A stretch of DNA of 63,727 nucleotides, counting the filler, from Rhabdomonas costata (Eukaryota), in NCBI GenBank assembly GCA_019059605.1. It is 31 parts of 31 records of this genome, joined end to end, with 100 filler letters (N's around TTAATTAATTAA, not from the genome) between each part and the next. Parts side by side here need not be neighbours in the genome. Positions count along the whole stretch, not along the records: positions 47,364 to 49,320 come from JAHMHO010006985.1; positions 49,421 to 51,382 come from JAHMHO010006986.1; 29 more parts are not named here. One strand, 5' to 3'. The notes below the pieces were generated by a model. The model worked only from the letters and a program-made list of their open reading frames with translations, searched no databases and had not been told where the DNA came from. A program made the position numbers and the translations under genes. Below, one piece after another: positions 1-62,949 of the stretch (positions within the stretch are counted from its first letter, which is position 1; each line of letters opens with the position of its first letter).

Positions 1-132
1 CAAAAACGTTCTGGGCTCGTCCCCGTCACGTGATATCGAGCCAAAAGACATAAAAAGGCTCACTCAGTGTGATGACATGTGGGGAGGTCAAACCCAATAT
101 GGCAACAGCGTTGGCAGAGCAGGAAATATGAC

Positions 133-18534: not shown

Positions 18535-19935
18535 GGTGGGTTGTCCCGGCCCGAGAAGGGGGTGAGGGCGTTAACCTTGGTCCAGGTCGCCCCTTCAGGG
18601 CTGCTCCAGACCTGAGAACCACACAACCGGTATCTTTTCCGGAAAGGGGGCGGGGGTTTGGTTAGCTATCAATTATTGGCTATCAAAGAAAGCCTCAAAT
18701 GGTTTCCAGCGATTACGGAATAATGGGCTACATGTGCCAGCTCCCTCCTGCTTTTTTCAGACCAGGTGATCGCAGGTGGTTCAGACCAGGTGATTTCCAA
18801 ATAGCATAAGTAGCCAGGACTTTCCGCCCCTGTAGTCTGCGTACGTCAGTGCTACAACCTTATATCTGTTGCATAGCTTCGGCCATGCAACCTTCCTTCC
18901 TTCCAGTCTTTTCAAACGATTGGTGCTGAGGTGCTGGTAATGAGCGCCTGTTGCTCGACAAAGGAAACTCAGGAATTATGTGAATACCGCAAAAGTGATA
19001 AATTGCGTCTCGAGTTCACTTTGGATTTTGCAGGATACCACACTTTCTGGATATGCGAAGCGCAACTGAAGTCACTCTGTCCCACTCTCTCTCTCTCTTC
19101 TTGCGCAGAAAAGCTCCCGGGTGGGGAGAAAAAACTCAGACATTGCGGAAAATAGGAGTTCAAAGAGAGGAAAAAAACCTAAATATACCAGTATCCGACC
19201 TAAATGTAGCAGTAATCCTTTTCTAGCATAAATGTTCACAATTGGAAAAAAAACCTACGTGTGGATGCGCACAGCCCATTACACTGGTTGAGGAAAAAGC
19301 AAGAGGGGAGGTGCATATGCTCACGTCGGACTGCCATCCACCGTTCACCACCCACATCTTCTGATTGAACACGGCGAAGCCAAAGAACATCCGCGCCGAG
19401 AAGATCGGAGCTTGAACCGCCACTTGATTCCAGCTGCTGGTCGCTCCCGTTGGGCTGCTCCAGACGTCGCTGAGAAGGCCGGAGTTGGAGGCGGTAGTGG
19501 CACCTGCGACCACCCAGACTTTGTCAGCAAACACCACGGAGCCGTGGCCGTACCGGGCAGAGAAGCTTCCCGTCCCTGTGTTCAGCTGCGACCAGCTGGA
19601 GCCTGTGGTGCTGCTCCAGACGTCGTTATAAATCGCTGAATATCCAGAGGTCGTTCCGCCCAGCACAAGCACGAGGGAGTCCCAGACCACACAAGAGTGG
19701 GCCCAACGGGCTGAGAAGCCAGCACCGCTGGTGAGCTGGCTCCAGTGAATTCCGTCTGAGCTGCCCCAGACGTCGTTCAGCGCCACGCTGCTGCCGTAGT
19801 AGGTGGGCGAAGGAAGCTGGCCACCTCCGATCACCAGTAGCTGGCCCTTGAGCACCACGGAGCAGTGCCCAGAGCGGGCGGACCAGGAGGCCGCAGAGGT
19901 GAGAGTACTCCAGGAAAACGAGGAAGTCACGGGGC
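18535..19935 (-). CDS. Kelch-like beta-propeller repeat protein, partial; exons 19935-19325 and 18611->18535
   Basis: Repeats of (W/F)SARxGHxxVV..(L/W)VxGG..NDVWSSxDG..W, with in-frame join WQSD|VWSSPEGATW. Confidence 0.88.
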
Positions 19936-20929
19936 CTATGGATAAAAATGGGTATATTCGATAAACAACGCTGAACCTTTTGATGTGAAGTCAACGAGGG
20001 AACAGGAAATCGAAGAAGTCAAAGAGTCTACGGACGGCCCTTTGACGCATCTGATAGAAACCACACAACTATTCATTTCGGGCGTTTACGTGAGTCCCAC
20101 TCACCCCTGCCAGCCGCGCGCGTGGTCCATCTGTAAAAAACTGTTCGGGCCATTGTTCTCAGACAGATGCCTTCATACACCTGGTCAAAAACTCGGTAAG
20201 TCTCGTTCCTCTGCACACGATCTCCACCAAAAAACCAACGCTCCGGGGGAGAGAAATAAGCACTTCGCAAACCCTGGAAAGTTGACTTGAATTGACTTGA
20301 ACCAAAACATCTGGCGATGATAATCAGTCACCAAGATAATAACTGAAGCCTTGGTAATGGGTCATGGGATAGGTGCTCGATAACGAAGAGGGGAGCTGGA
20401 ATGCCCTCAGAGAATGAAGAACAGTATCTCGGAGGAGTTAGAAGTTTCGCGTTTGCCCCTAGTGATGATAATTATCAGGCATACCCACCAAAACNNNNNN
20501 NNNNNNNNNNNNNNNNNNNNNNNNNNNNNNNNNNNNNNTTAATTAATTAANNNNNNNNNNNNNNNNNNNNNNNNNNNNNNNNNNNNNNNNNNNNTGTGTG
20601 TGGGAAATTAACTGCTGTGTTGCGGTTGTGAGCACAATGCAGGGCATTGATGTGTTCGCTCCCTCTGGCTTCTCATGTTTCCACATGCCTCTCGTATACC
20701 CGGTCGTTTTCGCCCTTGCCTACAACGTCGCCGAAGAAAAGAGTTGGGCTCCGAGACCTAGGGAGGCATCCCCGAACGCATTCTCCCCTTCAAATGCGTT
20801 TGCCCCAAGGCGTGCCACTTACCTGTTCGCTTTGGTCACCTCCAGACCACTTATTAGTACAGGTCAGGTTTGTTTGTTTTTTCGGTGGATGAAGCAATCG
20901 GAACTGGTAAGCTTTTCTGCGTGTTATAG

Positions 20930-22390: not shown

Positions 22391-23728
22391 GATCTTCAAG
22401 TTGGTTATATGAGGTCTTTTTACGCCTTCGGCACCCATTCTTGCATTTGGGTGGTATCATGTGGGTTCTACATTGGGGATTTCTACTAGCATTTCTAGCA
22501 TCTCGGTCTCTTGTGAGTTGAGTACCATTTTAGCTGGTTCTGAATTTCAACACNNNNNNNNNNNNNNNNNNNNNNNNNNNNNNNNNNNNNNNNNNNNTTA
22601 ATTAATTAANNNNNNNNNNNNNNNNNNNNNNNNNNNNNNNNNNNNNNNNNNNNTTTGGTGTGGGTTGGAAAAAGGTGGCGATAGTCTGTGGAAGGAATCT
22701 GTGGAGATCATGGTGATAATTTGAGGAGAGGGTGTGGAGAGTATTTTTATCAATAGTTCTGAGGTTCCAACAGGTTCTCGCACAAGCTGGCACAGGTGCT
22801 GGCACAAGCCGTCCGGCTTATTCTTTCCTGGTTTGGGGAAGGGGGCAAAAAGTCCCCACCCACACGCACTCACAGGAAACGCGGGGGAGTCAGTCAGAGT
22901 GGTTGGTGGATCTTTCTCACTCTCCAGCACCCCACTTGCCCCCCCCCCCCCAAAAAAAAGGCTGCTGGGCTGCCCGCGACAGCGCAGCGTTGTCGCTGTG
23001 GTGGGGGTGCTTTTGGCCGTTGTGGTACCGCTGTTGGTAGCTGCTGTACTTCTGTGGCTGGCGAGTGGGCACCTGCTGCGGCGATAGTCCTCGGCCCGGA
23101 CAAGGGAGGAGGATGCCGAATGAAAACGCTTTCTCTTTGTGGACTCCTTGTGAAAAGAGATTGCAGACCTGCTTCCGTCACAACCGTTGACCGATCCGCA
23201 TTTTTTTGCTCGAATTGCGGTTGCGAAAGCGTTTTTTTGGGTTGCTGATCGGTGGTAGGGGTGGTAATGACCGAATGAAGGCGGTGTACCTGCTTCAGGG
23301 ATAAAACTGCGTGGGTAGGCTCAGCCCAAAAACCCCTTCCCTGGCAAAGTCACCCACGGTCTCCCGTTAACAAACCAGAATGTATCTTTCCGCAATTCAA
23401 AAAGATTCGCGTTGTAGCACATTGTTTATGATCGAGTTGCCCGCCCTGTTTTGGCATTCAGCTAGCAGCTTTTTCTCGGCCTTTTTTCGGGAACCGGGTC
23501 GAATGGCTGAATGAAGGTCTTTAAATCAGCGTCAGCTACTACACCAAGACAAAACAAAGTTTGAGTTGGAAAAAACGTTCACATCAACAACGGAAAGCGT
23601 GTTTCCTTCCCGGATTTAGCCGATGTTCTCCTCTGCTTTTGCTTACCACTAAATATCCTTCTTGACCTTTGTGTCTGCTCTTCTTGGGTACCTGATTTGT
23701 CTCTTCGCTTCTTGCTTGTTGTTCCGAA

Positions 23729-24193
23729 ATGGACCTCTCGTCGCGGAGGCTGATCATCCTGGGCCTTGGGTTTCGGGTCACCGAGGCGGAGTTCCGCGCC
23801 TTCTTCGCCACTTACGGGCCCATTGAGGACGCCACGATAATGGTGCCGATACAGAACTCACACCCATACACTCATCCGCGCATTCGCGCATGCTCGACCT
23901 TTTGTCCATCAAAACGGCTGCACCTGTAGGCTACAGAGAGTTGCCGACCAGCCCGAGCGGCGCGGTTTTCATTGTGAACAGTAGTTGGTAGATGCGGGAA
24001 TCTCAGTCTATGGTGGTTTTTATTAGCCTGCGAGCTCTCCAATTATTTCAGGGCTTTCATACCTTTTGCCACGCTCTGGGTGGTTCACTTTGGTTTTGTG
24101 AGTGTACTGGAGGGTATGGGCACTCGCAGCTGGACAATGCGACGGGCCTGTCCAGGGGGTTCGGCTTTGTGACGTTCCAGAACCCAGAGTCTG
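23729..24193 (+). CDS. RRM RNA-binding protein (hnRNP A/Musashi/DAZAP1-like), 5' part; exons 23729-23842 and 24130-24193
   Basis: MDLSSRRLIILGLGFRVTEAEFRAFFATYGPIEDATIM|LDNATGLSRGFGFVTF, with RNP2-like and RNP1 motifs. Confidence 0.92.
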
Positions 24194-25089
24194 GTGTCGC
24201 GCTCACCCATCCTCCTATTCTATCCATTCATTGCTGCAGAGGAAGCCACCTGCAAAGAGGTTTGGGCACACGGCATATGGCGTTCATTGCGCAAGTCTCG
24301 TTGCTGGAGGGACATGCATCATGCTTTGGCTGAGAACCATATGTATGGACTCGTTATGCTGCCCCTTGCTTCACATGATATTCAATTTTGTTAATTAAAC
24401 TAAATGTCGGCAAAAGAATCTTTGAAGCGCAAAACCACGGTACAGCGCAAAACCACGGGGCAAGTGTTCTTGAAGCGTCTGGGGTGCAGTACCACAAGAG
24501 CAGTGTACAAGGAGCGCGATAGAGATCTGAGGGGAATGCAAAGTACAAGGTCTGAAAAGGAAACTAAACAACAAACAGACAACAGGGAACGTCAGAAAGG
24601 TGCAAAAACCAACNNNNNNNNNNNNNNNNNNNNNNNNNNNNNNNNNNNNNNNNNNNNTTAATTAATTAANNNNNNNNNNNNNNNNNNNNNNNNNNNNNNN
24701 NNNNNNNNNNNNNGGTTGCTTTCCAACCACCTTTGCTACGCAACCTGTATGAATACGTCAAACTCACAGACTTTCCCTCTTCGCTTGTTGCGCCTCGGCT
24801 CATGTTGAAGTGGATATTGCAGCCTTATATTTGACCCAAAACACTCGGAAGGGGACTAAGAAGCCTCCATTGTACAACATCTTTTGCACGCACACCTTGA
24901 TGTTTCACTTCTACTGCGCTAGCTGATGCTAATTTGTCAATGGGGGTATTCTGCATCACTGCAATGCTTAGATAAACTAGGCCGCTTGCTGGCCGGTGGC
25001 AGTTTCAATGCTTACACCTTCCTCTTTTGCTTTCAAAGGAGCACAGAAAACAAATATAAACCAGAGAACGTCCACAGATTGTCTCAGAA

Positions 25090-32700: not shown

Positions 32701-33337
32701 AACCACAACCGCACCGCCCAAACCCTGTCAGAAAGCCCCCACCTCAACTTAGAACACCTTTTCTCCTAAGATAGCCAAACTCACACACACACACACACAC
32801 ACGCACGCACACACACATACCAGCCACACGCACACCAACCACACCCACCACANNNNNNNNNNNNNNNNNNNNNNNNNNNNNNNNNNNNNNNNNNNNTTAA
32901 TTAATTAANNNNNNNNNNNNNNNNNNNNNNNNNNNNNNNNNNNNNNNNNNNNTGGGTGTGGGAGTATGAGCGGGCGTGCTCGGGTGAGCAGCGGTAGTTT
33001 TGGTAAACAAGAGATAGAGACTCCAGCTCACGGCAGAAAAAACCTTCTCAAGAGCAGGGGGCGCTAGCAGTCCTCCCTAATGCAAGCAGCCTTAACTGCT
33101 CTCCGACTCTGCTTTCAATCCATCGTGTTTGCGGAAAAGACTGGTGATGTATGACTTGTACTCCGCGGATTCTCAGCTTCGATCTCAGGAGCACCAGTGG
33201 GTGCGCGTTTTCAACCCACCAGGCAATTGGCGCGGACAACCCAAAACGAAGGGGTCCTTCGTTCGCGGAAGAGAGCGAGGGCGAATGTGGGGCACGTCCC
33301 CAAGAAGATCAGTGCTTGCTGGGGGGCCAAGCGATGC

Positions 33338-34589: not shown

Positions 34590-34911
34590 GTGTAAAAGGA
34601 ATAAAAGGAGCACAGCCCTCTGCCACATATCAACCAAAGAAATAAAAAACGGAGTGCCCGCACACCGGAGTGGATTTCTGAAGGCAATTTCCCAGAGCTA
34701 CGCACGAAAAGCAGTACCCTGATAAAAACAAACAGGAAAAACTGGCGCACGGAAAAAAAACCCGGGAAAATGTCCCATTATTATGTGTAAAAGGAATAAA
34801 AGGAGCACAGCCCTCTGCCACATATCAACCAAAGAAATAAAAAACGGAGTGCCCGCACACCGGAGTGGATTTCTGAAGGCAATTTCCCAGAGCTACGCAC
34901 GAAAAGCAGTA
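34590..34911. repeat. Direct tandem repeat, period 195 bp, truncated by the contig end
   Basis: GTGTAAAAGGAATAAAAGGAGCACAGCC...GAAAAGCAGTA at 34590 and again at 34785, identical over about 127 bp. Confidence 0.92.
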
Positions 34912-35011: not shown

Positions 35012-35228
35012 TTTTTGGGTGTGCACTTCCCTGCCAAACCTTAAATCCCAGATCGTAGCCATTGTGCGGATACCTTGGGTAGAGAAAAAACGAACGGTAA
35101 CTCTCTCTCTCTCTCTGGAAAACCACGATGGGAACAAAACGGAGTGCAGAGCTACGTGGCACGGGGATAACAGCACAATGGCTACGATCTGGGATGTAAG
35201 GTTTGGCAGGGAAGTGCATACCCAAAAA
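35012..35228. mobile_element. Fold-back/MITE-like element with ~56-bp inverted repeats
   Basis: 35012-35067 is the reverse complement of 35173-35228 with 2 mismatches. The left flank is cut by the contig edge, so no TSD is visible. Confidence 0.7.
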
Positions 35229-35509
35229 AGTCCGGCCCACTCACGCCTGGAATCAGATACAGGACCAGAACGCATTCATGGCAGCTGACAGGCCAGCAGC
35301 CAGCGACAATGGAGACGAAGACAGGTTATGTACTAATAATTAATATTAATTTCTGCTGAAAATATATATTTAAATATTTGTAAATCGGTTTGATTCTTTT
35401 GCTATGACCCTGACAAAAACCGATCACAGGGCATTTGATTTTTCAAATGTATGTATAACGCCTGCCACTTTACCATGTGCCGACGTCCACCAAAAAATAA
35501 AGCGCATAT

Positions 35510-36668
35510 CCAACCGCAAGCAAATCGCGGAGCAAGGGGAGGTCTTCTTCACCTTCGCTCTCTTCGAGGGAAGACTCCCAAGGGCCTTCCAGGGTCTTCC
35601 GCTCCGAAGCCGCGCGCTGCAGAGCCTGGCCCAGGCGCCGCCGCACGTTCAAGCGAACGGGCTGCGTGGTGGGATGGTCTGGCTCTACCAAGCCAGAGAG
35701 GCGAGCAAGGTACTCCGCGGCAGAAGCCGCATTCCCACAGTCAAATCCCGTGGAATCCTCCACGGAGTCCAACCGGACGAAGTCCGCCAAGGCAGCCCCA
35801 CCAGCCTGCCCCGCAGGGGCTGCAGTGCTGGCCACCTCACCCGTGCAGGGCGGAGTCAGTGGCGGTGGCGGCGGCTTTGTGCAAATAGCAAGCCTCTTTC
35901 GGGGCAACCCCTCTGCAGCACCATTTTCTGCTTCCGCACAGGTCAGGACACGCTTGTGCTGCTGATGCAAAAAGTTATGGGAACAACAAACAACCAAAAT
36001 TGAGTCCTCTAAGTCTCGATTCACAATTGCTTCAATTGGTCCAATTGCTTGGCAGACGTGAAGCACTCTCACAAACTCATGATATATACTGGAACTCCAC
36101 AACACAACCGTTATCACAGGCAGCCCAGTTTTCGTCCTCAGCCACGCATACGCAAAGGTTTGGTTATGCTCACTACAATTAAGAAGAACCCCGACTGCAC
36201 TAACCCGATCCCCCGGTGTGCACTGACCTTGTCCTTATTCGTCTGACTGGAGCAGGATGAGACAGCAGAGCTTGTGACACACGTCAGGGCCTGCTTCTCT
36301 TCTGGTAACGAGTCTTTCAACCCAGACTGCACGGTCTGGACTTCCATAACACCCTGAGCTCAAACTGGAAGGTCTGTCGAGGCCTTCCCTTCCCTTTGCT
36401 ACACAGGGGCTATTCTCAAAAGCCGCAGAAAGAAAAAGGCAGCAGAAAAAACACCTGGAGAACGGAGAACAATTCTTCAGTTTTCTCAGGTCGATGCAGC
36501 CTTTCAAGACAGAAAGTCCCCACATACAAAATCGAAGGTTGCCGGGTTTCTGACCTTCTGACATATCATTGCACATTCCACAGGCGGACCCAAGTATAAC
36601 CGAATTCGTCCTGCAATTCAGTTCCATCGCCCAGCATGTAACAAGGTAGGCTGCCACCAGAGATGAGA
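35510..36668 (-). CDS. Hypothetical multi-exon protein (approx. 36668-36565, 36350-36228, 35890-35510)
   Basis: GC3-rich segments: TPLLLISGGS..YTWVRLWN; VMEVQTVQSG..ALTCVTSS; ..ALADFVRLDSVED..AEYLARL..EEDLPLLRDLL. Boundaries are uncertain. Confidence 0.45.
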
Positions 36669-37169
36669 AGCAAAGGCGTCCTGCAGCTCCAGTCGTCAGT
36701 CAACACATGGGCTTAATGGTGGGTTGACAGGGCATAAAATACACTGTAGTGTCCATGTCCAGCATCGTTCACAGAGCCACAGAGTATCTTTGCCAAAGAG
36801 TCTTGGACCTTGCGCACCCCCCCCCTCCAAAAAAAACATTGTTGCGGATCCACCAGCGTTTGGACCCACAACATTGGTTAGGGGGTAGGGGGCGTCCAAA
36901 ATGTTGGCAAAGATTGCAGCAAACACACGTGCTCAGACCTTCTGAAACTTTTCAGAACACACCCCACACANNNNNNNNNNNNNNNNNNNNNNNNNNNNNN
37001 NNNNNNNNNNNNNNTTAATTAATTAANNNNNNNNNNNNNNNNNNNNNNNNNNNNNNNNNNNNNNNNNNNNTGTGGTTGGTTTAAATTTTCGTGTGTACGA
37101 GCATGAGGGTTGCGGTTTCTTTCTTTCGCGTATTCTTCTTCTTCTACTTCGTGTGTATGTGGGTCACAG

Positions 37170-39129: not shown

Positions 39130-41089
39130 GTTGTTGGGTAGCAGCAGCGCGGCGGGGATGAAGGCAAACCCAAACTGCAGCCCATGCGAGGCCAGCTCCG
39201 CGGGGCTCAGCAAGCGAAGTCGGAAGGCCGATGCGGCGGCAATTACGTTGGCCTTCACAAGCACGATCGTCTGCCCGGTGCTGCTCACGGTGAGGTTGGC
39301 ATCCCCAGAGGCCGCAGAAAGCCCGGCGGGAAGAGGAAGCCCCACAATCATCCAGTCCCCAACCCCAAGCGCGGGAACATTCAGCTGGGCGTCCTCAAGG
39401 CTTCCCGTGGGGCTGCCCCATTCCAGAGCAGTCAATGCAAACGACGTCGCCGTGATGTACGCAGGGTTGGTGACGTTCCCGCTGAGCTGAAGGGTAGCCC
39501 GGAAGGTCCCCAGAGAAGGCTGGCCCCGCACACTCACCCAAATCTCCAGCACTGTGCTGAAAGCGTACCGCAGAAGAGGGCTGCCCGTGCTGCTGAGCTG
39601 CACCGAGGGCTGCAGGATGGACGTGGGGCTCAGCACTTGCATGGAGAAGGCCTGGGTGGTGCTAAGAATGGCAGGGGCATTGGGGCTTGCGCTGAGCACA
39701 TAGGTGGGGCTGTCCGCAGCCCCGGTGCCGGGCACAAGCGTCAGGCTGACGATGAGGTGCCCCGCCGTGTCAAACGTCAGGTCGGCAAACGCTCGCACTG
39801 GCCCGGGCGCCGTGGGCCCATACACGCTCACCGAGGTGCTCATGTCCAGCGAAACCGACACGCTGAGGTCGAAGCGGTTGCAGGCACTCGCAAAGAAGGT
39901 CTCCGAAAGCACCTGCTCCTCGCTCGGCGGGAACACGGCCTGCAGGAAGCAGCTGTACAGGCTCCCGCTGATCATCACCACGTTGTCATGCATCTCCCGG
40001 TGCAGCCAAGCGGAGCCATCGCGGTGCGGGAGGAGGCCGCTGAGGTCGCCAAAGGGGTCCACAGGAAGGGTAAGGCTGTAGCCACAGCCCGTGGGCTGCA
40101 CGGCCTGCGCCCATGGCGGGGAGCCCACCACGGTAAACGCGTTGAGGTTGGTGCAGATCGTCTGCGGGGTGGTGGTGTTGAAGGGCGTCGCTGCGGCAGG
40201 AAGGGGCATCTTCACCGCGGCGGAGGGAAGCACTGAGGGCAGTGTACCCAGAGCCATGGTCGTCTGCTCGCTGCCTGTGATGTACATCCCGCCCGCGATG
40301 TAGGGGTAGCTCACCTCAACATAGAACCCGCTGCCATTACTGCGCAGGCTCATGGTGGGCTGCGGTGGGGTGGGCCGCAGCAACACGTCCAGGCTGTAGT
40401 CCACCGTGAAGACGGAGGGGCAGGCGCAGTGGCCGGAGCCCGCGATGCCTTCCCACTGGCAGAGCCTGCTGCATCCATCACCATCCTCAACGTTGCCGTC
40501 GTCGCACTGCTCCCCGGCCTCCAGAAGGAAATTCCCGCAGATGCCGTTCCCGGGGGTCTCTGCCCCTGATTTTTGCATGAAATAGTCAAAGTTGTGTGAC
40601 ATTTCTACAAAACATAGTCCCGTGCGTGTCGAGGTGACAACTGCGCACCCGTATAAACAGTCAAGGCGCATTGCGCACTGGCTGTTGCTTGGTTGACTGG
40701 TTGCTTGGTTGTTGGTGACCACTGTGCACTGACGGGCGCACGCGCTCTTGGCCACGGGTGCTCGCGGGAGGTGCCGTTGGAGCGAACGGTGCCGTGGGGA
40801 ACCGGATCCGGCTCACCGCCGAACGTTCCACATATGGTAACCTCCCTGTGTGTGTATGTGTGTGTGTGTGTGCACGCGGAGCGGAATAAGACCATTTTCG
40901 CATTCCAGGGACAAGACACAAGGACACCGAGGAGAAAGCCGTACCTCCACAGCTCTGAACCTCGCAGGTGCGCGTCGCCACGTCGCCCTGTAGGTGAGGG
41001 CAGGTGCCATTTCCCGAAGCAGGAGAGGTAACCTGGAAGATGCCCGTCTGGATCCCTACCCCGCAGCTCGCAGTGCAACCCCCCACACA
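39130..41089 (-). CDS. Large extracellular protein: TSP1 (spondin-type) repeat, DUF4215/Myxococcus Cys-rich repeat and a long unknown region; exons >41089-40945 and 40565->39130 (possible small exon between)
   Basis: CTASCGVGIQT..F.VTSPASGNGTCP..TRTCEVQSC; CGNFLLEAGEQCDDGNVEDGDGCSRLCQWE; >1.4-kb open GC3-rich exon. Confidence 0.88.
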
Positions 41090-42690: not shown

Positions 42691-43367
42691 GAACAAACAC
42701 GTGCTACGTGAACAAACTCACTTCGCCAGACCAAACATAACCTAAAAACTTCCTCCAATAACCCTCATTACAAATAGTGCAGTCTTGAGACTCCGCAGCC
42801 CCTATTTTACCGCTGCGTGGCTGATTGCTGTGACGTTTCATAAACCTCAATTACCTCTAACACTAGAATTTGAGCTTTGAGCTAACATCTCAGCAGCATC
42901 GGATGCCGCAGATATGGCAGGGCCGACCTTTTTCTGGATTTTGTTCTCTGCAACACGTGACAAAACGTTTTGTGCCGGTGTTTTGAATTTTATAGCTTCG
43001 CCATAAGATTTTATGTAGCGTTACTGTTAAAATGGGGCACATTTAACAAACTTAAGCAAACCCAAGTAAGGAGTTCAGGAGTTCGGCAACAAACAAACAG
43101 TACAAGGGGGACCGAAAAGTTGGGAAGGGGAAACAAAACGGTTTGTNNNNNNNNNNNNNNNNNNNNNNNNNNNNNNNNNNNNNNNNNNNNTTAATTAATT
43201 AANNNNNNNNNNNNNNNNNNNNNNNNNNNNNNNNNNNNNNNNNNNNGTGTTGGGTGTGGTTGGTGTTGTGGGGCGTCCCGAAGCCTGGGCAAGGGGTCCG
43301 CTGATCGATAATTTATAGCCGCCATAAATGGTTATGTGTTGGGTTGAAAATATGGAAGGCAACACAC

Positions 43368-45662: not shown

Positions 45663-47061
45663 CTAGGACCCTGAGCGGGACCGTGAGACGCGGCGCTGCC
45701 GCTTCGCACCACCCCTGCGGGAGTCCCGAGAGCTGGACCGGGGCCTGGGGCTGCGTGAGCGAGACCTCCCTCGACCCCGCGGGGAACGGCGGCGGGGACT
45801 GCGGCTGGAGCCACGCGCATCACGGAAGTCCGCGCCGGACTTTGGACTACACGGACACAAAGGCAACAAGATGCGTGCGAAGTAGCAGATGGTGAGTGAT
45901 GCATTTGTGTAATAAGTGGAAGCAACGGACTTTGGGTGAATCCGAGGAGTCACAGACGCTTCAAAATGCAATCAAGATTTCAAGGAAGTAGAGAGGCTTC
46001 CACAAACTCATCAAAAGGTACAGCGCCTCGCGCCAGAAGGGTTTATTATGATATAAAAACTCTTTGAAACAAAGACGGAACAACGGCTGAACTGAGCGGT
46101 CAAAGTTTCACCAAGCTGGGAGCGACGCACGATGGGAAGGTGGAAGGGGGGGGCTACCGGCACGGCTGCACAACGATGCGCATTCCATCCATTGACTTGT
46201 TATCCATCTCATCCACTGCTCGGTCGACATCCCTCGGAGATTCAAACTCTGTGGTGTGGAACAGGAAGTCAACTCACTGCAAAGAGCTAGAACAAGAGAA
46301 GACAAACCATGCAGTGAGAGCTGATCTTGTTCATCCACAAATCCAAAAAATACAACCCCACACTGAGAGCTGAATTGATTCCGATAGGCATGCATTCAGC
46401 ATGCATTCATCCAACGACTAAATGGACGCAGATGTGTGAGCCAAGCATGAAAGTAAAAAAGGCGACACCCCCCCCCCAAAGCATTAAAAGCATACGTACT
46501 GAAAACTACAGCGCATCAGTTGCGAGTATAGAGCACAAGCGAGAAGATACTCTATTCTAGGAACGCTGTAAGCCACGGAGGGAAGGCTGTGTCTTTGTTC
46601 GGGAGATGGGCATTTCCAGGGAATTGCCGTAAACACTAGGGTTCCTAATGAGCTTCCCCCATCTGATCGCCCTCTTACCTTCAGCGATTAATTTTAGAAT
46701 CCCTGGGAATCTCTGGGACGTGGGCCTTCACAGAAACCCACCTGCATGAACTACTGAGGCGGGGATTATCCATATACAAAGGTGAGGCAAGCGATGATGG
46801 TCACCGTTTAGCGCTGTTGGAACAACACGTCAACATGTCAATGCATGAGAAAAAGAAGCGGTTGGTTCGGACTTATGTGGGGCGTGAGGAAGAACGGAAA
46901 GGGAGACAGTGTACCGACGAAGCCAAAGGTTGTGCCCAGCTGGGAGTTGGACCGCACGGCGGTGGAGACCACAGGGCCGACTTTCTCAAACATCCTCCGC
47001 AGCTCCTTGTCCGTGGTGTCCTGGTGGAGATTCCCCACGTAGATGCGGTTGCCTGCGTCAC
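45663..47061 (-). CDS. SR-family splicing factor (RRM + RS domain); exons 47061-46915, 46248-46158, 45846-45663
   Basis: RIYVGNL..TFGFV|EFESPRDVDRAVDEMDNKSMDGMRIVVQPCR|PKS..SRSPRRRSPRGRGRSRSRSP..SRSRSGS*. All joins are in-frame GT-AG. Confidence 0.95.
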
Positions 47062-47363
47062 CTGAGAGAAGGGTCACCCCGCCGGAAATGAGCTGGCCCA
47101 GCTGCCGAAGCTGTATGCATCCAGCATGAGGGCCTCTGCTATTTCTCCCTCTTTCCCTTTGATCCACACAAGAGTAAAAGAGAGAGGTCTGGGCTTGTCA
47201 ATTCCGCCAGGAGGCGACTCGCATGCCCCCCCCCCCAAAAAAAAAGAGGAAGGTATTTGCAAANNNNNNNNNNNNNNNNNNNNNNNNNNNNNNNNNNNNN
47301 NNNNNNNTTAATTAATTAANNNNNNNNNNNNNNNNNNNNNNNNNNNNNNNNNNNNNNNNNNNN

Positions 47364-48026
47364 TGTGGGTGTTAGCTCGTTGAGCTCGCTGAGGCACGAC
47401 CCAGGGAACTTCATCGGCTGAGTGATCCGCATTTGGCTCAGCAGGCGCATGTCACGGACGAGCTGCCTCAGAGGATGGGTCAGAAGCCTCAGCAGGATCA
47501 GGGTGAGGATACACGTTCTGTCCGACAGACGAGAGGGGGAAAGTCAAACGCCAAACTTGTAGCCCTCTCCAGGGGTGTCTTTCAGGAAAAATGGACTGAT
47601 GAGATGATCTGCCGCTGAGTTTACCAGGGAGTTCCGGTTTCTTCGAAATTCGCACAGTACGGACATCAATTGGTGCCTGGCATTTCCGCCGAAAAAACAT
47701 TTCTAAATCCCAGCCAATCACGACCCGAAAGTGGAGATCAAGGGAGGGTTGACTTGGGTTTGTTTTGGGTTTGGGATTCGGGTTGAATTCGAACAGAAAG
47801 CAGGGATCGCAGGTGAATTGCGACGGAACAGGTGCGGCAGTGAACGAGCAGAACAGGCTGGGTTGTACAACTGCTCTACGGGACCATCAGCATTGCAAGT
47901 GATGGCACCATACCCAGCAATGCAGCCAATGATGATCATCATGTTAATCTTGGCCCCCGCGTACACCTTGTCCGTCCAGTACTCCGATGCCGAGGCCACT
48001 ACCAATATCCAGGGTAGGCGCAAGTC
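47364..48026 (-). CDS. Membrane sensor protein (end of Cache-like region, TM helix, HAMP), receptor cyclase/PDE-like; internal exons 48026-47914 and 47517->47364
   Basis: DLRLPWILVVAS..YWTDKV..INMMIIIGCIAG|TCILTLILLRLLTHPLRQLVRDMRLLSQM..SCLSELNEL. HAMP signature PLxxL..M..S..E..EL follows a TM helix split by a GT-AG intron. Confidence 0.8.
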
Positions 48027-48344
48027 CTGAAAACCCATGTACCGACAAAAGAAGGCCAGAGGTACAATTCAAAACACAGATTAAACAACCCTGGTAAGTT
48101 TTCTTATAACCATCGATGGACACAGGTTAACGGGGATCCCCAAATCCCCCCCCCCTCCTCCTCTCCCCTGTGATCGTCCAGTCAGTACTTTTGTTCCACA
48201 CATCAGGCACAGTGATCGTGTCTGATCATCCCTTTGCTGTCCTTTTCGGCGAACCGATACAGTCTTGCTGTTTGCTGTTGGTTTTTCGTTGTCGTTTTGG
48301 GTATCTACATCATCGTCACTTCTTTGCATTTTTTGGGTCCGCAG

Positions 48345-48941
48345 AAGGTTGTGGTGACGGTGGGCAACATCGACATCTTTGATCTTCACTTCCGCGTCCT
48401 CAGGCATGTTGGCACGAAGTTTTTTTTTTGGAGAGCTTTACCTCTGCCTCTTTTTTTTGACAGGATCCGGAAAGGGGTGTGTGTGCGAAACAAAACGTTA
48501 AAGAACGGAAAAAGGTCCATTGCTCAAAATGGATAGTTTTATTATGAAATCGTCTAAACTGCGCTGAAAATCCTTTCTCACTTGCTTCATAAAAAACAGG
48601 CACACCACAAACATGCACTTGGTGCCAATAAGTGGAGGGTCTATCGTGCACCGCCCGCTGGAGGAGCTCGGTCTTGGCCTTTGTTGTGTGCTCCGAGATA
48701 CGACCCGTTGAAGAGAAATCTTACGACTTTGGAAATTTTTGGACTTTATGCTTGCACACAGAGCCCAGCAACGGTTCCCTGACTGCTGTTGTTGTTGTTG
48801 GGGGGGTCACAGGCACCCCGACACGTTCACTGTTGTTGGGGTTGTGGAGAGCGAGCCGCAGTGGCTGGACCAACTGGAGGTGCAGCTCGTGAACCTCAGC
48901 AGTGGAGCCGTGGTGAAGGCCGTTAGCGTGCTGCCCAACAA
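48345..48941 (+). CDS. NOMO: Nodal modulator (NOMO)-like protein, C-terminal region; internal exons 48345-48403 and 48813-48941
   Basis: KVVVTVGNIDIFDLHFRVLR|HPDTFTVVGVVESEPQWLDQLEVQLVNLSSGAVVKAVSV aligns by eye to the recalled NOMO segment VxVGxxDIxxxxxxVFRxxxxFxLSGxVxxxxEYLxxLxVxL. Requires a GC-AG intron. Confidence 0.7.
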
Positions 48942-49753
48942 GTGCGCGGTGAGGGTGGAGGGACACGCAAACATTGCCTTTGCCGGCATAGGACTTCCTC
49001 GCTCGTAGTATTTTTGGTTGTGAATGAGGGTTTACTTGTGTGCACATGTGCTCGCTTCACATGACCGTCATGCCTACCCTTTGTAACGACATACCGCTCG
49101 ACCACTTCTAGTTTTGACCCGATCCAACTTTACTCGACCCCTTCTTGGTAAATTATGCGGTTGAGGTGAGCCGCCGGGTGGTCGATGTCCAAATATCTCT
49201 CCGTGTGGTGGATTAGGGGTGACCACTTCACCCCTTTATTCACGCCTTTAGGTACTTTGAGATCCCCAAGCTGAAGCTCCCCGCGACTTCCATGCCCTTC
49301 CTGGTGCGTGTCTCCCACACNNNNNNNNNNNNNNNNNNNNNNNNNNNNNNNNNNNNNNNNNNNNTTAATTAATTAANNNNNNNNNNNNNNNNNNNNNNNN
49401 NNNNNNNNNNNNNNNNNNNNTGTGTTGGGTGTCGTTTTAGGTCAAATTTGACTCTTTTTAGGGGGTTTCCTAAATTCTTCACGAGCAAGCAAGGGAAGGT
49501 CATGGTGCAAGAAGGAATTTCAGGGGGAGGACTATGCCTTAGGGTCCCAAAAGCGCCCTCGCGCACAGAGAGCCAAAAGGTTCGGAATTATTTGCCATTT
49601 TTTTACTATGGAGAGGATCCTACTAATTATTGTTTGTTTTGTCCTGTAAAAGAGTTCACATCCAAAGCTCACCCAAAGAGGGCGGCCGCCGCACGACTCA
49701 CCTACACCTCACCTGCACCAATACTTCCCCTTTCCGCAAAACAGAGCCACACC

Positions 49754-52878: not shown

Positions 52879-55619
52879 GTTCGCTCTCCTTCACATGAAT
52901 GGTGTCTGGCGTGCAGTGCCGAATTGACGATGTCTCACTATACCCACACCTGTGGGGAGAACAGTCGGGTCGGAGTGGCGAGTCTCAAAGCAGCAGATTT
53001 CAAATAATCACTACTCTGCAGAAATCGGAGCTGAGGCTTTTCGTTGGTGTTGCCATGACCAGGTTGGTCTGGTTCGCTGTGATTCCGCTTCATTTTTTCT
53101 GGTCGCCGCTTACTGGAAGTGGAAACTGGAGGGCCACTCCAGAAGGATAATAATTCATACTGACCAGGGGTTGCAGTCCATATTACGGTATATTGGGTTA
53201 GTTGGGGTGTTTTTTGTTTCCGATGGTGGGGGGCTGCTTCTTGCACGCAGCTGTTCTTCGGCGCGAAGGGTTCTTAAACGAGTTGAAGTGGATTGCTTTC
53301 CGGGCATGCGTTTTGGTCGGTTGAGGCGCTTTGCACATTAATTGTAGCTTTTGTAGCTTTTTTCACACCTGTACCCTTTGCCAGCTCAGCGGCCCCCTTC
53401 TACCCCGGGGCCCTCTCCTCTTATGAACCCACACCCCCNNNNNNNNNNNNNNNNNNNNNNNNNNNNNNNNNNNNNNNNNNNNTTAATTAATTAANNNNNN
53501 NNNNNNNNNNNNNNNNNNNNNNNNNNNNNNNNNNNNNNGGGGGTGGTGGGCATGCCAAGGCAGTAGGGAAAAACAAAGCTTTTTTGTTTGCTTGTTTATT
53601 CGTGCTAACATGCTTTCATTTTGACAAACCTAGCTTGACTTTTCTTTTCCGCAAAACCTCTTTTGAATTTACAAATTCAAAGAAAAGAAAAGAAAAATCA
53701 AAATCCCAATCCACGTAAACGACAACCGAGCTTCTGGTCGTATGAGTCTTCCCCTTGCTTTTTACAAAGTTGTATTTGAAACCTTCAATTTCCAATTTTT
53801 TCATCTCCTGCGGAACCTTGCGGCTCACCCAAAAGGCAGAAAGGCCGCCCACAGCCCTTCATGACAATATGTGTGTGAGGTTGAGAATAAAATGGAGTCC
53901 CTTAAAATGGCAAAAAAAATATTTCCGCATCCCGGTGATACCAGTCTCACTTACCTTCGGTGTTACATCAGAGACAAAACCCACCGCAATACGACAGGGA
54001 ATTTTTGCATTCGTGCGCGTGGAACAACCCTAGTCCAGGCATCTGAGCTCCAGCTGGGGGAGGCTCCGTAGCCGCGCCGTAGGCACACACAGACACACTG
54101 TAGGCGCACACGGAGACCACCCCCGATGAGCGCCGAACGGATTTGTGCAAATCATTCTCGGGATGACCCACAAAGCTGGGGCTGTGGGGCACATACGCAC
54201 AGACGGAGGCGAGAAAGCCAAGCTCAGTGGTCTATCTTCCCATTGTTGCTATGAAAGATGGCAATGCTCACCGATTTCGCATGGAAAAAAGAGATGAAAA
54301 GACTTAGTAGAGAAGGGCACATCCTATCCTGGTAGGGATTGCCCTATTTCCCACGAACACCCCGTCCCTCTTGAACAACGAACCGTTCGGAAGTCTTTAT
54401 GGCGACCAGGGAGAGGAGCTAACGTCTGCTAACCCCGTAAACCCAGAACTTCAATGCATTGTGTAAGGGACACACAGCCTGCCTATGGATTCCCATTGCG
54501 TAAGACTACATACACTTACTTTATGGTTCCCAAGCAGAAGAGTGGGCGAGAAAAATGCCCCTTAGGTGCAGCCAGCGAACAGTTCTGAGATCCAGCAACC
54601 TAAAAACATTTTGGCGCATCAAACCGGCATTCCAAATAACAGCATATGACCATCGTCTGCAAATACATCGCCTGCATCATTTCGAAACAACACAATTGCG
54701 ACCAAGTGAGTCGTCGTGTCAGGAAAAGAGATGGGGAAGATATGCCTGCCGAAGCTGTCCTGCTGCGGATGCTTTGGTGGCAGCGGCAGCGGCGGGTGTG
54801 GTAGGCTAGTCACGTCCCCGGGCTGTGCCGCTGTCGCGGAGCTTTCACAGAAAGACAGTGGAACCGAAAGCGAGTATGAAAGCAACTCAACACCAGCCGC
54901 CACCATGCAAGCGCGCACGCGTGCGTTCATACCCACCGTTTTTTTGCCATGCCAACAAGAACGGTGGGGATACAGCAGTTTAACAGTGTACGGCGCAACG
55001 TCCTGCGCTTTGGCTTGTCCTTCTCAGCAACAATGCATCCAGAACGGCACCCTCACGACATGACAAGGCGGCATAAAGAAAGAGCCATACCCCACGGAGG
55101 CCCCACCGAGCATTCTCAGGGAGGAAGTAAACGAGGGCAGAGAGGGCCGGGCAGAGGGGGCAGCGGGCGGCTGGGCGCCAGTGAGAGCCACGGCAGGGGC
55201 GCTGCTGCTGCTGCTACTGCTGCTGCTTGAGGTAGCGGTGGCAAGGCGAGAAAGCATGGGTAAGGGGCTGCCCAACCCACTGTTGTTCCCCTGTTAAGAA
55301 TGACGCGGGGTTTGTAAAAAGTGCGAGGAAATGCACCCAAACTTGGCCCTACCGGGCTCGTTGGTGTCCAAATGCTTTGAACCATCATAAGAGTTATGCC
55401 CAAATGGCTCCGTATGAGGCTGAAACTTGGGGGCTATTATATTCGCAAGCAAGGAGCACGTGGTGGATGCGGCAGAAATGCACGGTAACAAACAAANNNN
55501 NNNNNNNNNNNNNNNNNNNNNNNNNNNNNNNNNNNNNNNNTTAATTAATTAANNNNNNNNNNNNNNNNNNNNNNNNNNNNNNNNNNNNNNNNNNNNGTGG
55601 TGTGGTCTCGGATATGCCC

Positions 55620-56075
55620 TCATGCTCACATTCATCGACGACCAGCATCTTGTCTTCTGCATTCTCACGAGCGCAGCGAGTATGTGAGCTAGCGACCCGT
55701 ACAGCGGGGAGCGCAGCGAACCATCACATCTAGGGAGTGAGGGAGCGTAGCGACCTCACGACCAGCAAAGACATCTTGGGGGCCCCATGGCATCGGCGCA
55801 AGGAGATGACATGGGGATAGAAGGCATGCTTAGCGAATAGCATACAAGTAACACGTAGGCATGTCGAGCGCAGCGAGGCATGCCGTAGGAGCCTCAGGTA
55901 TACGTGTCACTCCGCTCTCATGATGGTCCCTTCGTTCCTCTGGGCCCATCATGTTCTCTCCGTCCGGGCGTAGCCACACGAAGAATACACCCTTACCATT
56001 AGACACGAAGCATGCAGTCACGGAGTGGCGCATGCGTAGCAGAGGATGGAGGGACGAAGCGTAGCGGAGTAGTAG
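55620..56075 (+). repeat. Hairpin-array repeat family, copy 2 (GAGCGNAGCGA-capped stems)
   Basis: GTGAGG-gagcgtagcga-CCTCAC (55737-55759) and GCATGTC-gagcgcagcga-GGCATGC (55859-55883), further GAGCGCAGCGA copies at ~55669 and ~55709, and CGACCAGCAAAGAC at ~55759. Confidence 0.7.
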
Positions 56076-56099
56076 AGGATACAAAGCTGGTAGGAATGT

Positions 56100-57554
56100 T
56101 GACACTCAACCCTTAACTCACCCTACGCCTTCACTCACCCTTCGACTCCAACACGTAACCCCTCCACCATCCCTACGTCCTCAGAAATACAGCCCTCAGC
56201 ATCAACACACACAAGCACTCATGAAGCAGTGGTAACAACAACAGCAGCAAGGACAACAGGAGCGTCAGAATTCCACACGTCAAGAAACACAACAGGCATT
56301 AAGGTCGCAGGAACACACACCGTTACACAAGCACTGGTAGAGAGCATGGTTGAAGCAGAAGGCCTGGAGACAGAAACGCTGGAGACAGAAACGCAGGAAG
56401 GCAGAAAGGCATCGGAGTCAACGTACGCATCACCAACACAGGAACCACCACCACAGGAACCATCAACGCAAGCACCACGCATCGTCACACCCTCCAGTTC
56501 AGCATCCACACACACCCTACGACTCAGCTTGCCATCAGCAACACCCACACCCTTACCCTTACCCTGACACTCCACCAACTCCCTCACACCAGCAGCAGGA
56601 ACCCTAACACACAACCCCTCTACAGCAAGAGCATGGTAGAGACAGAGACCGAAGGCGTAGAGACAGAAGGACACACAGAGCCACCAATACCGCTAGAGTC
56701 GGAGACAGGAACACCACCAGGAACCTCACGACCAACAGGAATGCCAACACCCCGCGAAACGCCTCGACCACCACAGCATGACCCACCAACAGCACAGCAC
56801 GACACCAGCACCAACAACGTAACGACTACGACCACACCAACGCCTTGACCACCACCACCAACAACAACAGGAACAACAACACACCCTACGCAAAGCACCA
56901 ACGTGAAACCAACAACAAGCACGAAGCACAGCCACATCCTACGACACAAGCACAGCACAGGCACCTAAGACACAGACTCGGCATGGTTGACGGAACCTGA
57001 GACACACACAGCACCACGAACGCTACGACTACCACACCCTACGCATCGACCAACACACCCTAACCCTACAGCATCAGCACCAACAACACCTACGCTACAG
57101 ACTACGCTACAACCCATACCCATACCCATACCATTACCCTTACCCTAACACTACGCAGAAGAAGAAGAAGAAGAAGAAGAAGAACATACGCGCGAGGAAC
57201 CCATAGCACCACAATGCACACCCACTACAGCAACGACAAGGATAGCCAGACCCAATGCACACACAAGCAAGGCGCTAGAAGATGCCACAAGAGAACCCAC
57301 CTCGCCGACCCACTCGCTACAAACGACACCATCCAACCCTGCATGCAACCCACACTCGAAGCAAACCGAAGGACAAGTACAACACACCATGGGTAAGCCA
57401 AGACTCGACAAAGCACCACCGCAACACAACTCCACCCCTGCACCCTACGCACCCTACGTCACAGCAACACCAGCATCCAACGCATCCAAAGTACACCCAG
57501 CACCACCCATGGACCCACTCAACAACGACACCATCGCAGCACCCACAAACCACC
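56100..57554. repeat. C/A-skewed degenerate repetitive tract (mucin-like Ser/Thr/Pro remnants)
   Basis: Recurrent GCATGGT..GAGACAGA blocks (~56340, 56630, 56980) and TTACCCTTACCCT motifs. All frames are interrupted. Confidence 0.75.
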
Positions 57555-59405
57555 NNNNNNNNNNNNNNNNNNNNNNNNNNNNNNNNNNNNNNNNNNNNTT
57601 AATTAATTAANNNNNNNNNNNNNNNNNNNNNNNNNNNNNNNNNNNNNNNNNNNNCTGACGGAGCCTTGTTAAAAATGAACAATGCCCAAGAGGATTTGCA
57701 CCACTTTTGTCCAGGTGTACACTCACGAACAAGTAGGCACAACGGTCCCGAAGAAGAAAAGCTTGAGGAAGATGCACATTATAATGGCGACATGGGAGTT
57801 TGCCAAGGTCAAGCATCCATTTTTCTTATTAAAAAGTCTGGAGTTGCCGAGGCTCTCTTCGGGAAACGGCCCTTCTTTTTGCTTTCTACGGGTGCGGCAG
57901 TGGGAGGTCATTCTGGGATCCCTTTAATTGGCGGACACACGATGGCGAGGAAGGGCGGTGATCCCGGAGACCGCTCTGCATCACATTGTGGAAATACCGG
58001 TAAAAACCGTAAACCGCCATTGTATTGGGAAGGAGCACAGCCGGGAGAATCCGGGGTTCCCTGGGATTTGGTGCATCGTCTCGTATCACATGTCCGTTCT
58101 AGGAAACTTTCCGGATTTCGCCAGTGGATGTTTCCGACCCTTGCGCAATACAAGTATGGCCACCACTAAAAAGTAGGAAAAGACGACGGCTGGCAAAAGC
58201 GGGGGTCGGGTGGACTGGGAAGGAAGGGGCTCCAACTTATTACGACAACAACCACTGAGAACCCCCTGTCTTTCAACGTTACCGCACTTGCGTGGATGCA
58301 AAAATGCTCTTGGCTAAATTTCTTCTCGCCCATAAAGTCAATTGCTTCACAGTTTCACGCGGGCCTTTTTCATGTGACGGCATGCCCGTCCCGCGCTAAT
58401 CAGGTCAAGGCTTTCCTGACGGCACGTGTGTGTCTGTGTGTGTGCTTTGGTTTTAGCCCATTGAACTTTGTACATGGAACCGTCGCGATCCGCGGGGAAG
58501 GCCATGACGGAACTTGCCACTGAAGATCGAAAAATAAATCGGTTTTATCAATTTAAATTTAGTATTCCTCGGAGGTTGCCTTTAAAACAGCACTTTTCCC
58601 CACCGGCCAGCAGCCACCCGACCAAAAAGCTTTACCTTGGTCCGCCAAAAAGTCTTTTCTACAATTGAGCTTTGGAAAGATGGAAAATGCCTGTAGTATC
58701 CGACAGTGGCGGGATGCAAACAATGTATTACTGCAGTCTGCGCGAACTTTCATTCCCGCCTGACTCGCAGTTACCAGGTGACCACCCGATGGCCTCATTT
58801 GCTGTACCTTGTTTCGTAAACGAAAGCTGTGCCTTTCGTCAAAAACGTTTCGACGGTCCCTCTTTCCGCGCAGGAGCAAAGGAGGACACGGGAGCTATAC
58901 AGACACCGTGGGGCAAGAGCGTGTGAGTGGCAAAGTGGTAGTCCAGAAACTCATCCAAAGGAGGGTCGGGGATGACACTCGATTGACAGTTTACATGTTG
59001 AAACCCATGCAAACTGGACACTTCCCGTTCCCCACCACCAACCACCCCCTCCTGTATACACGCAGACCACGATGTCACGATGTGAAAAACAGATGCGCAC
59101 GGAAATTACAGGGCAGAGGAGCAAAAGCTCATCGCTGCCCCCCGCAAACGCCCACAGCCCGAATGCAAAGCACACACCGACAGCAGACGCACACCCACAA
59201 CTCTTACGCTGCTTCTCTTCTTCGCTGTTCCATTTCTCCAAATTCCCGTTCACACGTGCACTCGCGCTCAGGCAGAGGCTCCCACAGCGTCCACCTGGCA
59301 CCCTCACCATTGAAAACCCTCATAAGGTGTGTGGGGACACTGAGCACGTAAAAAAGGTGCCTCGCATTGCGGGTTGCGTGGACAACCCTCTCCCCAATTA
59401 CTCAC

Positions 59406-60892: not shown

Positions 60893-62949
60893 AACCACTG
60901 CGCCAATGCGCCACGTCAACCTCCGCACTCGTTGAGCCATTCTGATTTCGCATCGGGATTCGCTCGGTCTCACAGCTGCATTTGGGCATGCTGGAAAGAA
61001 TAGGTTCCCGATCAGCTGCACAAGAGACACACGCACAAAAGGGAAGAAGAGGACCCATGGAAGTCAAAAGCGCAAGGGAGATATGCACACCAGAAAAAAA
61101 GCACGACAGACGCAAGAAACAATACTACACAGCGTGATTGCGGTTTAATTGCACCGTATGAACCAAACTGGTCGTGCAGAACCACTCTGCAACAACCACC
61201 TTGGTTCATGGCGATCGTTGAGAGCAGTCTGCCTTTCTCAACGGTACCTGGCTGCCTACAATTGTACCCCAACCCCAACCCGATCTAACCCCCTCCAACC
61301 TCGCAACAAAAAAGAGAACCAGCGACAAAAAGGAAAAGAGCGCCACAGAGAGTTACAATAAATAACTGCACATCGCCGGATCAGACCCCATTACAGCTGA
61401 CCCATTCGACGGAGATCGAACTGCAGCTCATCCACAACGACGTTCACATAGCTGTGCGAGGTGGGCAGGTCCCGCAATAGGCACACGTGAACACGAGAGT
61501 TTTGAGAGTCTTGAGTGGCTTCAGAAAGAGGCTAAACCTTGGGTAACTGAGTTACCCACCACTTAGGTTGCAAAGAAAAACCAAAGTCGCGGCGACAAGC
61601 GGCATTGCTCATACTTTTCGGGAGCGTTCGCAACTTCGTGGATATGTTCTACGTCGGAGTCACCGAACANNNNNNNNNNNNNNNNNNNNNNNNNNNNNNN
61701 NNNNNNNNNNNNNTTAATTAATTAANNNNNNNNNNNNNNNNNNNNNNNNNNNNNNNNNNNNNNNNNNNNGGTTTGTGGGAGATTGTATACTGCGGAAAGC
61801 TGCATAACGTCATATATCTAGTACATTGTCCCGAACGTCATTTACAGATGAGTCTTGGTGGTCACCGAAAACTGCAGTCCAAGGGAGATTTTGCGTGCTA
61901 AAAAGACTGTCATCAATTTAAACAGATTAATCATCAACTGAAAAGCTACACTTTTCTAAAATTGAAGGTATTTTGGATAACCAAGTGTAGTTGAACAAGC
62001 ATTGAAACATTTGTATACGAGTTTACACATAGTACTAACAGAGGAAGTTTGCATTTGTATCTCGAAAGACCGTTAATCCATTGATCGTGTTCACGAATTT
62101 GCGGTAATGCAAAGCAGAGGAAATACTCGTGCACTAAGCAAGTCAAAGTGCCAGCGCATCGTCTGTGGCTCCATGTCACTTGCCATAACTAGTTTCATTG
62201 CGTTTGTCGTGCTTTTTGATGAGGTATTTTTGACACAAACTACCGTTCATTCGTTGAAGCTTGTTTTGATGCATGTTTCTATGTCCGGCAATAATTACAA
62301 ATAAAACACAACTTTGAAAATGTTCCACGGTGCTGCGTGATTGACAACTTCCCCACCTGGTTTTGATTGTGTGGTTTACACCAGTTCAATTAGACGAGGT
62401 AAAACTTTATGCAATTACAGTATCTCACTCCTGCGCCATATTTTAATTCAAAAACGTTACCTGTATACATTCAGTTACTGTAAATGCAGGGTATTGCGCC
62501 ACAGTCAGAATATATGAATCCACTTACGCTTATATAAGTTGAATGCTTCTACTACTATTTACCGCCGGCTCAACAGATCCAGAAGGCTGTCCAGTGCGGT
62601 GGTGGCATTCGTACAGCCATTCGTTTTGAATGTCAGTGGCTATTGCTGGATGATTAGATGGATTGAATGATTACAGTGAGTGTCTATGGGGGATCCGGTT
62701 GATTGACACCATGGGGACACAAACTAATGTGGTGCAGATGGTGGGGAGGTGGTAACCGGAGAACGGAAGTGGTTGGTGGTGGTAGTGGTGTTGAGATCAT
62801 TGTGGTTTGGAAAATTGGCATTAAATAGGTAGCGGATAAAGCATGCTGGAACAAAACACCTGGGACCTGAAAGAGTGGATGCCTGAGGTGGCGGGGGGGC
62901 GGAGATCTTCTTTGAGATATCAAGTGGATGTAGGGAGGGCTCCGCCGGA

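Follow-up and report, generated by a model that had tools for sequence, protein, structure and literature searches.

Genes housed within the introns of other genes have long been known in animals, where opposite-strand nested or interleaved pairs are described in Drosophila and in mammals (PMC3814207, PMC5174743, PMC8467205); close to 10% of the genes of Drosophila are nested, according to PMC3814207. A second precedent for exons facing each other on opposite strands comes from DNA amplification. More than 85% of the chimeras formed during displacement amplification are inverted sequences with an intervening deletion, most of them intramolecular, according to PMC1855051. Here we report on one contig of the Rhabdomonas costata assembly GCA_019059605.1, which occupies positions 47364-49320 (1,957 bases) of the window, that is, of the whole 63,727-nucleotide stretch of DNA analysed, and which carries two sets of exons arranged head to head. 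A preliminary description of this DNA proposed that a HAMP receptor gene on the minus strand and a gene resembling that of the nodal modulator (NOMO) on the plus strand are mutually interleaved. The exons themselves are real, and the claimed interleaving is at least as likely to be an amplification artefact. Our tentative preference, held at a shade under an even chance, is that the head-to-head arrangement is an inverted chimera made during whole-genome amplification (WGA); a real nesting or interleaving, itself a known kind of arrangement, we regard as quite possible though less than probable.

Five coding exons lie on the contig: A and B are read from the minus strand, and C, D and E from the plus strand. 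In the list below, a slash marks the exon boundary and GC3 denotes the GC fraction at third codon positions.

47364..47517, minus strand: exon B, acceptor GGACAG/A, running off the contig end; GC3 0.78, codon score 0.16 per codon, top 1.3% of stop-free controls
47518..47913, minus strand: intron between A and B (GTATGG...GGACAG), 396 nt, no coding signal on either strand
47914..48026, minus strand: exon A, acceptor TTTTCAG/GAC, donor GG/GTATGG; GC3 0.78, 0.18 per codon, top 1.8%
48027..48344, no strand: gap between A and C, 318 nt, no coding signal
48345..48403, plus strand: exon C (KVVVTVGNIDIFDLHFRVL), acceptor CCGCAG/AAG; GC3 0.79, 0.32 per codon, top 0.6%
48813..48941, plus strand: exon D, acceptor TCACAG/G, donor AA/GTGCGC, 42 full codons; GC3 0.81, 0.30 per codon, top 0.1%
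49252..49320, plus strand: exon E (YFEIPKLKLPATSMPFLVRVSH), acceptor CTTTAG/G, running off the contig end; GC3 0.86, 0.29 per codon, top 0.5%

Codon scores were calculated with the 11 Pfam-verified exons of the window as reference, each left out in turn, and with stop-free stretches or frames as controls. The verified exons score 0.10-0.28 per codon in this leave-one-out procedure, and their GC3 of 0.68-0.86 compares with an overall GC fraction of about 0.49. Exons A to D, as the preliminary description had placed them, stand at their coordinates and on their strands, with coding scores above the verified-exon minimum and splice sites present. Exon E is an addition to that description; its acceptor completes the split codon left by exon D. 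Spliced in phase, A and B form 89 codons without a stop. Exon A encodes a short strand-like hydrophobic stretch, a linker and the first half of a membrane helix, and exon B the second half of this helix followed by a basic helical stretch that starts with proline; the helix (residues 29-47 of the 89, mean hydropathy 2.66) thus spans the exon junction. On the plus strand, C joins D in phase, and C, D and E together give an open frame of 85 codons; its product is rich in alternating strand-forming residues, as is that of exon D by itself. The donor of exon C at 48404 is GC rather than GT, with an in-phase GT at 48419.

The strand of each exon was tested by setting its frame against the antisense frame that shares its third positions, a comparison that comes out positive in 19 of 21 chunks of the verified genes. 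The scores are +9.3 for exon B and +10.9 for exon C, where the antisense frame contains a stop in both cases, +6.7 for exon D, a weak +2.5 for exon E and +0.5 for exon A, whose strand is not fixed by codon usage alone. We place exon A on the minus strand because GC periodicity is bounded by its two minus-strand splice sites (16/20 and 13/17 inside them, falling to 10/18 and 7/14 outside), because a plus-strand reading scores poorly, because its donor provides the two bases required by exon B, and because the membrane helix is formed only across A and B. The plus-strand reading in question, a signal-peptide first exon at 47902-47973, was rejected because it scores 0.01 per codon where the minus frame reaches 0.39, and it is also contradicted by a periodicity that continues to 48026.

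The two sets of exons had been described as lying about 320 bp apart, and the measured gap between A and C is indeed 318 nt. Pyrimidines are enriched on the minus strand in its left 67 nt and on the plus strand in its right 251 nt; the switch in skew is abrupt and falls near 48090-48110, and A/C-only runs occur at 48070, 48083 and 48146. A chimeric join would fall within this gap. At 48094-48099, on the skew switch itself, the plus strand carries a perfect donor consensus, G/GTAAGT. An exon that ends at this donor and brings a start codon to exon C was considered and discarded, as the required frame carries a TAA three codons upstream.

How far the contig can be taken as genomic DNA depends on the make-up of the window. 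It consists of 31 contigs of 1,950-1,962 bases, roughly sorted by length and separated by 30 identical artificial linkers of 100 bases (44 N, TTAATTAATTAA, 44 N) at 1962-2061, 4023-4122 and so on to 61670-61769; contigs adjacent in the window are unrelated to each other. The span studied is exactly one of these contigs. Its boundaries are as follows.

47264..47363, no strand: artificial linker (44 N, TTAATTAATTAA, 44 N), with an unrelated contig on its left
47364..47373, plus strand: G/T-only 10-mer TGTGGGTGTT, WGA primer tail (primer design in PMC10781638 and PMC6961581)
49314..49320, plus strand: A/C-only run CCCACAC, complement of the primer tail, recognised from contig-end composition
49321..49420, no strand: artificial linker, with an unrelated contig on its right

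Since both flanks are unrelated contigs, upstream exons cannot be sought in the rest of the window, and no valid conclusion can be drawn across a linker. The contig ends have a composition of their own. G/T-only runs of at least 8 bases (mostly 10-12) open 23 of the 31 contigs, and A/C-only runs of at least 7 bases close 19 of them, the studied contig being included in both counts; as background, a G/T-only 8-mer begins at 1.5% of internal positions. A WGA universal primer was searched across the window with up to 3 mismatches, and all three near-matches fall exactly at contig ends and point inward (expected number 0.10). The methods of PMC10781638 give this same primer, followed by ten G/T positions and two free bases, and a longer variant of it appears in those of PMC6961581. 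The G/T-only and A/C-only contig ends are the degenerate tail of a WGA primer, and the library was amplified. Further primer-derived ends can be seen, for example, at 49421-49432, 43247-43273 and 32831-32852.

Hence the preliminary description took too much of 47364-49320 for genome: the first 10 and the last 7 bases derive from primer, and linkers lie immediately outside. The TGTGGGTGTT 10-mer and the next 2 bases encode LTPT, the four residues with which exon B ends, and the final two residues of exon E are likewise primer sequence. More generally, the first and last ten or so bases of each contig in the window are primer and not genome, and the whole assembly is presumably built like the window, as a chain of contigs of about 2 kb, each bounded by amplicon ends and joined to the next by a linker. 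Head-to-head and fold-back structures within such contigs call for independent DNA before they are given a biological reading.

Structures of the latter kind are present. Two of the 30 other contigs (10305-12264 and 35012-36970) start with fold-back inverted joins at 10308-10382 and 35012-35228; the arms measure 31 and 61 nt, the loops 13 and 95 nt, and the primer tail is included in the structure. These fold-backs are inverted joins made in amplification, and therefore inverted chimeras exist in this assembly. In the contig studied the two halves are opposite in sense, coding strand and base skew both switching between 48027 and 48344, and the absence of any credible upstream exon of either gene from the contig also counts for a chimera. 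The introns point in the same direction: an authentic join would require an intron longer than 981 nt in the plus gene and, should the minus gene not start at 48038, one longer than 1,294 nt in the minus gene, against 310, 396 and 409 nt for the three introns on the contig and gaps of about 240-460 nt between consecutive coding blocks of the same family elsewhere in the window. As far as tested, moreover, the junction is carried by a contig one amplicon long, which is a circumstance that the preliminary description had itself named as telling against its claim.

In an inverted chimera, a growing strand would have left its template somewhere in 48027-48344 and then copied the opposite strand of another template, probably one near by at the same locus, and the product would be an inverted join. 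Both halves would then lie on the same strand in the organism, perhaps in one gene. Such a gene might encode the end of a type I membrane protein, with the strand-rich region of C to E followed by a last strand, the membrane helix and the basic tail of A and B; if the contig is a chimera, A-B may form the end of the very protein whose luminal part is encoded by C-E, an architecture that NOMO has (PMC8327139). The resemblance to the inverted chimeras of Lasken and Stockwell 2007 (PMC1855051) lies in segments of opposite orientation with the sequence between them missing, in an amplified library with fold-backs in the same assembly. Unlike the DNA of that study, which was amplified by phi29 displacement, the assembly here carries PCR-type degenerate primer tails.

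Several observations weigh against an inverted chimera. The studied contig contains no inverted repeat, and no universal primer sequence (up to 3 mismatches) is found in the gap; a positive chimera signature is thus missing. The A/C-only run at 48083-48091, to which the preliminary description had drawn attention, looks like an amplicon end but was rejected as a chimera mark, since such runs of at least 9 bases occur 5 times in the contig and no universal primer follows this one. The acceptors of A and C both have well-formed pyrimidine tracts, which would abut in the same manner in a real overlap, and the introns of the plus gene contain two weakly periodic, open and phase-compatible minus frames, as real interleaving predicts. 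The chimera statistics of PMC1855051 come from a different amplification chemistry. Finally, the putative join at 48027-48344 is read from the contig sequence, and the one-gene idea draws on general protein architecture rather than on a match.

The features that bear on the two genes' starts are as follows.

48036..48038, minus strand: in-frame ATG (MGFQ...), 12 bases (four codons) upstream of exon A, the frame staying open up to the exon
48619..48690, minus strand: second candidate minus exon, within the intron between C and D, in phase with A
49139..49204, minus strand: candidate upstream receptor exon of the preliminary description, open frame, donor GG/GTCGAG with GT at 49138

Exons C and D and the open frame before C contain no in-frame ATG. 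All 13 ATG-started, phase-fitting plus-strand exons that could lie upstream overlap minus exons or the gap edge, and the three of them that were scored are non-coding (-0.47, -0.42 and -0.17 per codon). The contig offers the plus gene no credible start exon; given authentic DNA, the earlier exons of this gene must therefore lie to the left of 47364, with A and B in one of its introns, and some overlap of the two genes follows for the same reason. The situation of the minus gene is different. Because of the in-frame ATG at 48038, which is a possible start of this gene, exon A need not be internal. Both sets of exons do begin with acceptors, as had been described, and the further statement that neither begins with a start codon need not hold for the minus set. 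In the same way, the argument that each gene's upstream exons must lie beyond the exons of the other retains its force for the plus gene, provided that the DNA is authentic, and loses it for the minus gene, which could start at 48038. By coding scores and the scan for start exons, the contig holds no supported exon of either gene beyond the exons of the other. The argument for interleaving presupposes that the 1,957 bases faithfully reproduce one stretch of genome and that both exon sets are internal.

One reading with authentic DNA is one-sided nesting, in which the minus gene starts at the ATG at 48038 and sits inside a long intron of a plus gene whose earlier exons lie to the left of the contig; we consider it unlikely. 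The ATG stands 12 bases before exon A with no stop between, the MGFQ... peptide resembles a signal peptide by eye (a basic start, a hydrophobic core and small residues), and a plus gene that begins further left is what the lack of an ATG in C and D and the 13 overlapping upstream candidates imply. Opposite-strand intronic genes are, besides, the most common kind of gene overlap according to PMC5174743 and PMC3814207. However, coding periodicity begins at the acceptor at 48026 and not at the ATG (four codons being too few to tell), and the acceptor TTTTCAG, pyrimidine tract included, has the appearance of a splice site in use. The reading also needs the plus intron of more than 981 nt where the contig offers 310-409 nt, and it depends on the authenticity of the join.

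Mutual interleaving as originally proposed, with both exon sets internal and their upstream exons beyond or within introns of the other gene, is open to the same objections over intron length and the join, and we find it more doubtful again. It accords with the good acceptors at which both sets begin and with the plus gene's want of a start exon on the contig. The two phase-0 minus frames in the plus introns, 49204-49139 and 48690-48619, have weak GC periodicity and, chained together, would read in phase into exon A; a looser periodicity scan flags both as open minus blocks, along with many doubtful blocks elsewhere. Their coding scores tell another story. The frame at 49204-49139, for which the preliminary description had correctly noted an open frame and a GT donor, lacks a coding signal at -0.03 per codon (17% of control frames as high; strand score +0.6), and the frame at 48690-48619 reaches -0.08 (23% as high; strand score -0.8). 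Both score below all 11 verified exons (0.10-0.28) and were rejected as exons, their strand scores being near zero, and the family labels that made the known exons 'internal' found no support. Were mutual interleaving true, receptor exons would lie in the introns of a large Ig-fold membrane protein gene and the reverse, and in an intron-rich microbial eukaryote both pre-mRNAs would be spliced across each other's exons.

Either form of overlap would resemble the nested and interleaved pairs of Drosophila and mammals in having exons inside an opposite-strand intron. Unlike those pairs, for which flanking host exons and transcripts are known (PMC3814207, PMC5174743, PMC8467205), the contig has no flanking exon, and its host introns would have to exceed every intron measured in the window two- to threefold. 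A real arrangement would add one more opposite-strand nested or interleaved pair, of modest interest in a short-intron protist; a limited literature search turned up no paper on interleaved genes in protists, a result that makes no claim on the print record.

The remaining explanations, a chimera that joins two unrelated loci (one form of the amplification chimera that we favour) or a decayed gene fragment beside a live gene, are improbable: run-off products can prime on any template and nothing links the two halves, which share no repeats on the contig, but intramolecular joins are favoured (PMC1855051) and both exon sets keep the open frames, splice sites and full coding statistics that a decayed fragment would lose.

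The family labels were pursued with single exons as queries, the large protein databases being searched with exons B and D. In Pfam, seven frames of the finding gave only one chance match (13.7 bits against a 40-bit cut-off), and three more frames gave none. Against the sequences of the Protein Data Bank (PDB), exons B, C and D had no match and exon E only one chance match, a 10.6-bit repeat hit with E = 5. A word-index search of longer proteins returned 31 candidates for exon D and 4 for exon B, none of them at E <=10, and full HMMER with exon D over 1,835,955,588 proteins gave 0 at E <=0.001. In the Atlas, the best score for exon D was 0.80, to an unrelated bacterial family and below the meaningful level, and exon B had no usable match. 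A metagenome scan with exon B reduced 592 pattern matches to one locus (L001), whose 13-residue match was dismissed as chance since it lies antisense within bacterial genes. The other 30 contigs contain no paralogous exons. In a control, the same Pfam search matched 9 of 17 further short coding blocks of the window (33-95 residues), namely to ABC-2, TPR, SIR2 (two blocks), NAD-dependent epimerase (two), RRM (two) and, weakly, DUF1842 (E = 0.21). Both proposed families are poorly conserved. The negatives on identity are weak because the queries were single exons and because of this poor conservation. Within that scope nothing detectable was found for either peptide, which is an outcome that had been named in advance as unfavourable to the interleaved pair.

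For the minus-strand gene, A and B do share with HAMP-linked sensors a strong membrane helix followed directly by an amphipathic stretch that starts with proline. In contrast to such sensors, no Pfam family, the HAMP profile PF00672 included, matched exon B (51 aa) at E <=10 and none matched its 56-aa frame at E <=1, and no output domain is visible. The contig could hold at most the first two thirds of a HAMP domain, the last four residues being primer-derived, and the HAMP negative is weak evidence against the label, as the domain would be cut by the contig end. The receptor label drew no support from any search (Pfam, PDB, word-index, Atlas or metagenome).

The NOMO-like label fared no better in Pfam, PDB, the word-index search, HMMER or the Atlas. 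NOMO is a type I membrane protein of the endoplasmic reticulum in which an N-terminal signal peptide and a long luminal series of Ig-like folds precede a single C-terminal membrane helix and a short cytosolic tail (PMC8327139). Like it, the plus exons C to E are rich in strand-forming residues, as Ig-like folds are. Unlike it, they supply only 85 residues; tested as single exons, they matched neither NOMO nor any other family, and the only membrane helix of the contig lies on the other, minus strand. The plus strand has none, and the minus-strand helix with its basic tail would fit NOMO only if the contig is an inverted chimera. Exons C, D and E may be collinear with the last Ig-like region, in the C-terminal part, of human NOMO1.

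Elsewhere the window contains ordinary eukaryotic genes in short exons, at 91-615 (minus), 2397-2669 (plus), 4604-4738 (plus), 11391-12195 (minus), 14566-15351 (minus), 19226-19990 (minus), 23714-24210 (plus) and 46841-47197 (minus). The gene set at these eight spans comprises a ubiquitin-conjugating enzyme, an ABC-2 transporter, TPR, SIR2 (two exons), a Kelch propeller, RRM proteins and an NAD-dependent epimerase/dehydratase (two exons), with an exon GC3 of about 0.7-0.86 against the overall GC of about 0.49. No Rfam family and no tRNA was found in the window. The longest exon in the window is a 561-codon open frame without an intron at 39130-40812 (minus), which fills most of one contig; it has a GC3 of 0.78 and a strong coding signal, and it matches only the Cys-rich repeat DUF4215, and that weakly (E 1.7e-4, below the cut-off). 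An exact direct duplication of 127 nt (34590-34716 and 34785-34911, 195 nt apart) reaches a contig end; it is a tandem repeat or else an artefact of assembly or amplification. The regions 8820-10205, 16768-17838 and 55597-57554 stay open over long distances in two or three overlapping frames but lack coding periodicity, and they look like low-complexity or repeat DNA rather than genes; the contig at 55597-57554 is strongly skewed, with a GC skew of -0.26 and an AT skew of +0.46 at 56001-58000.

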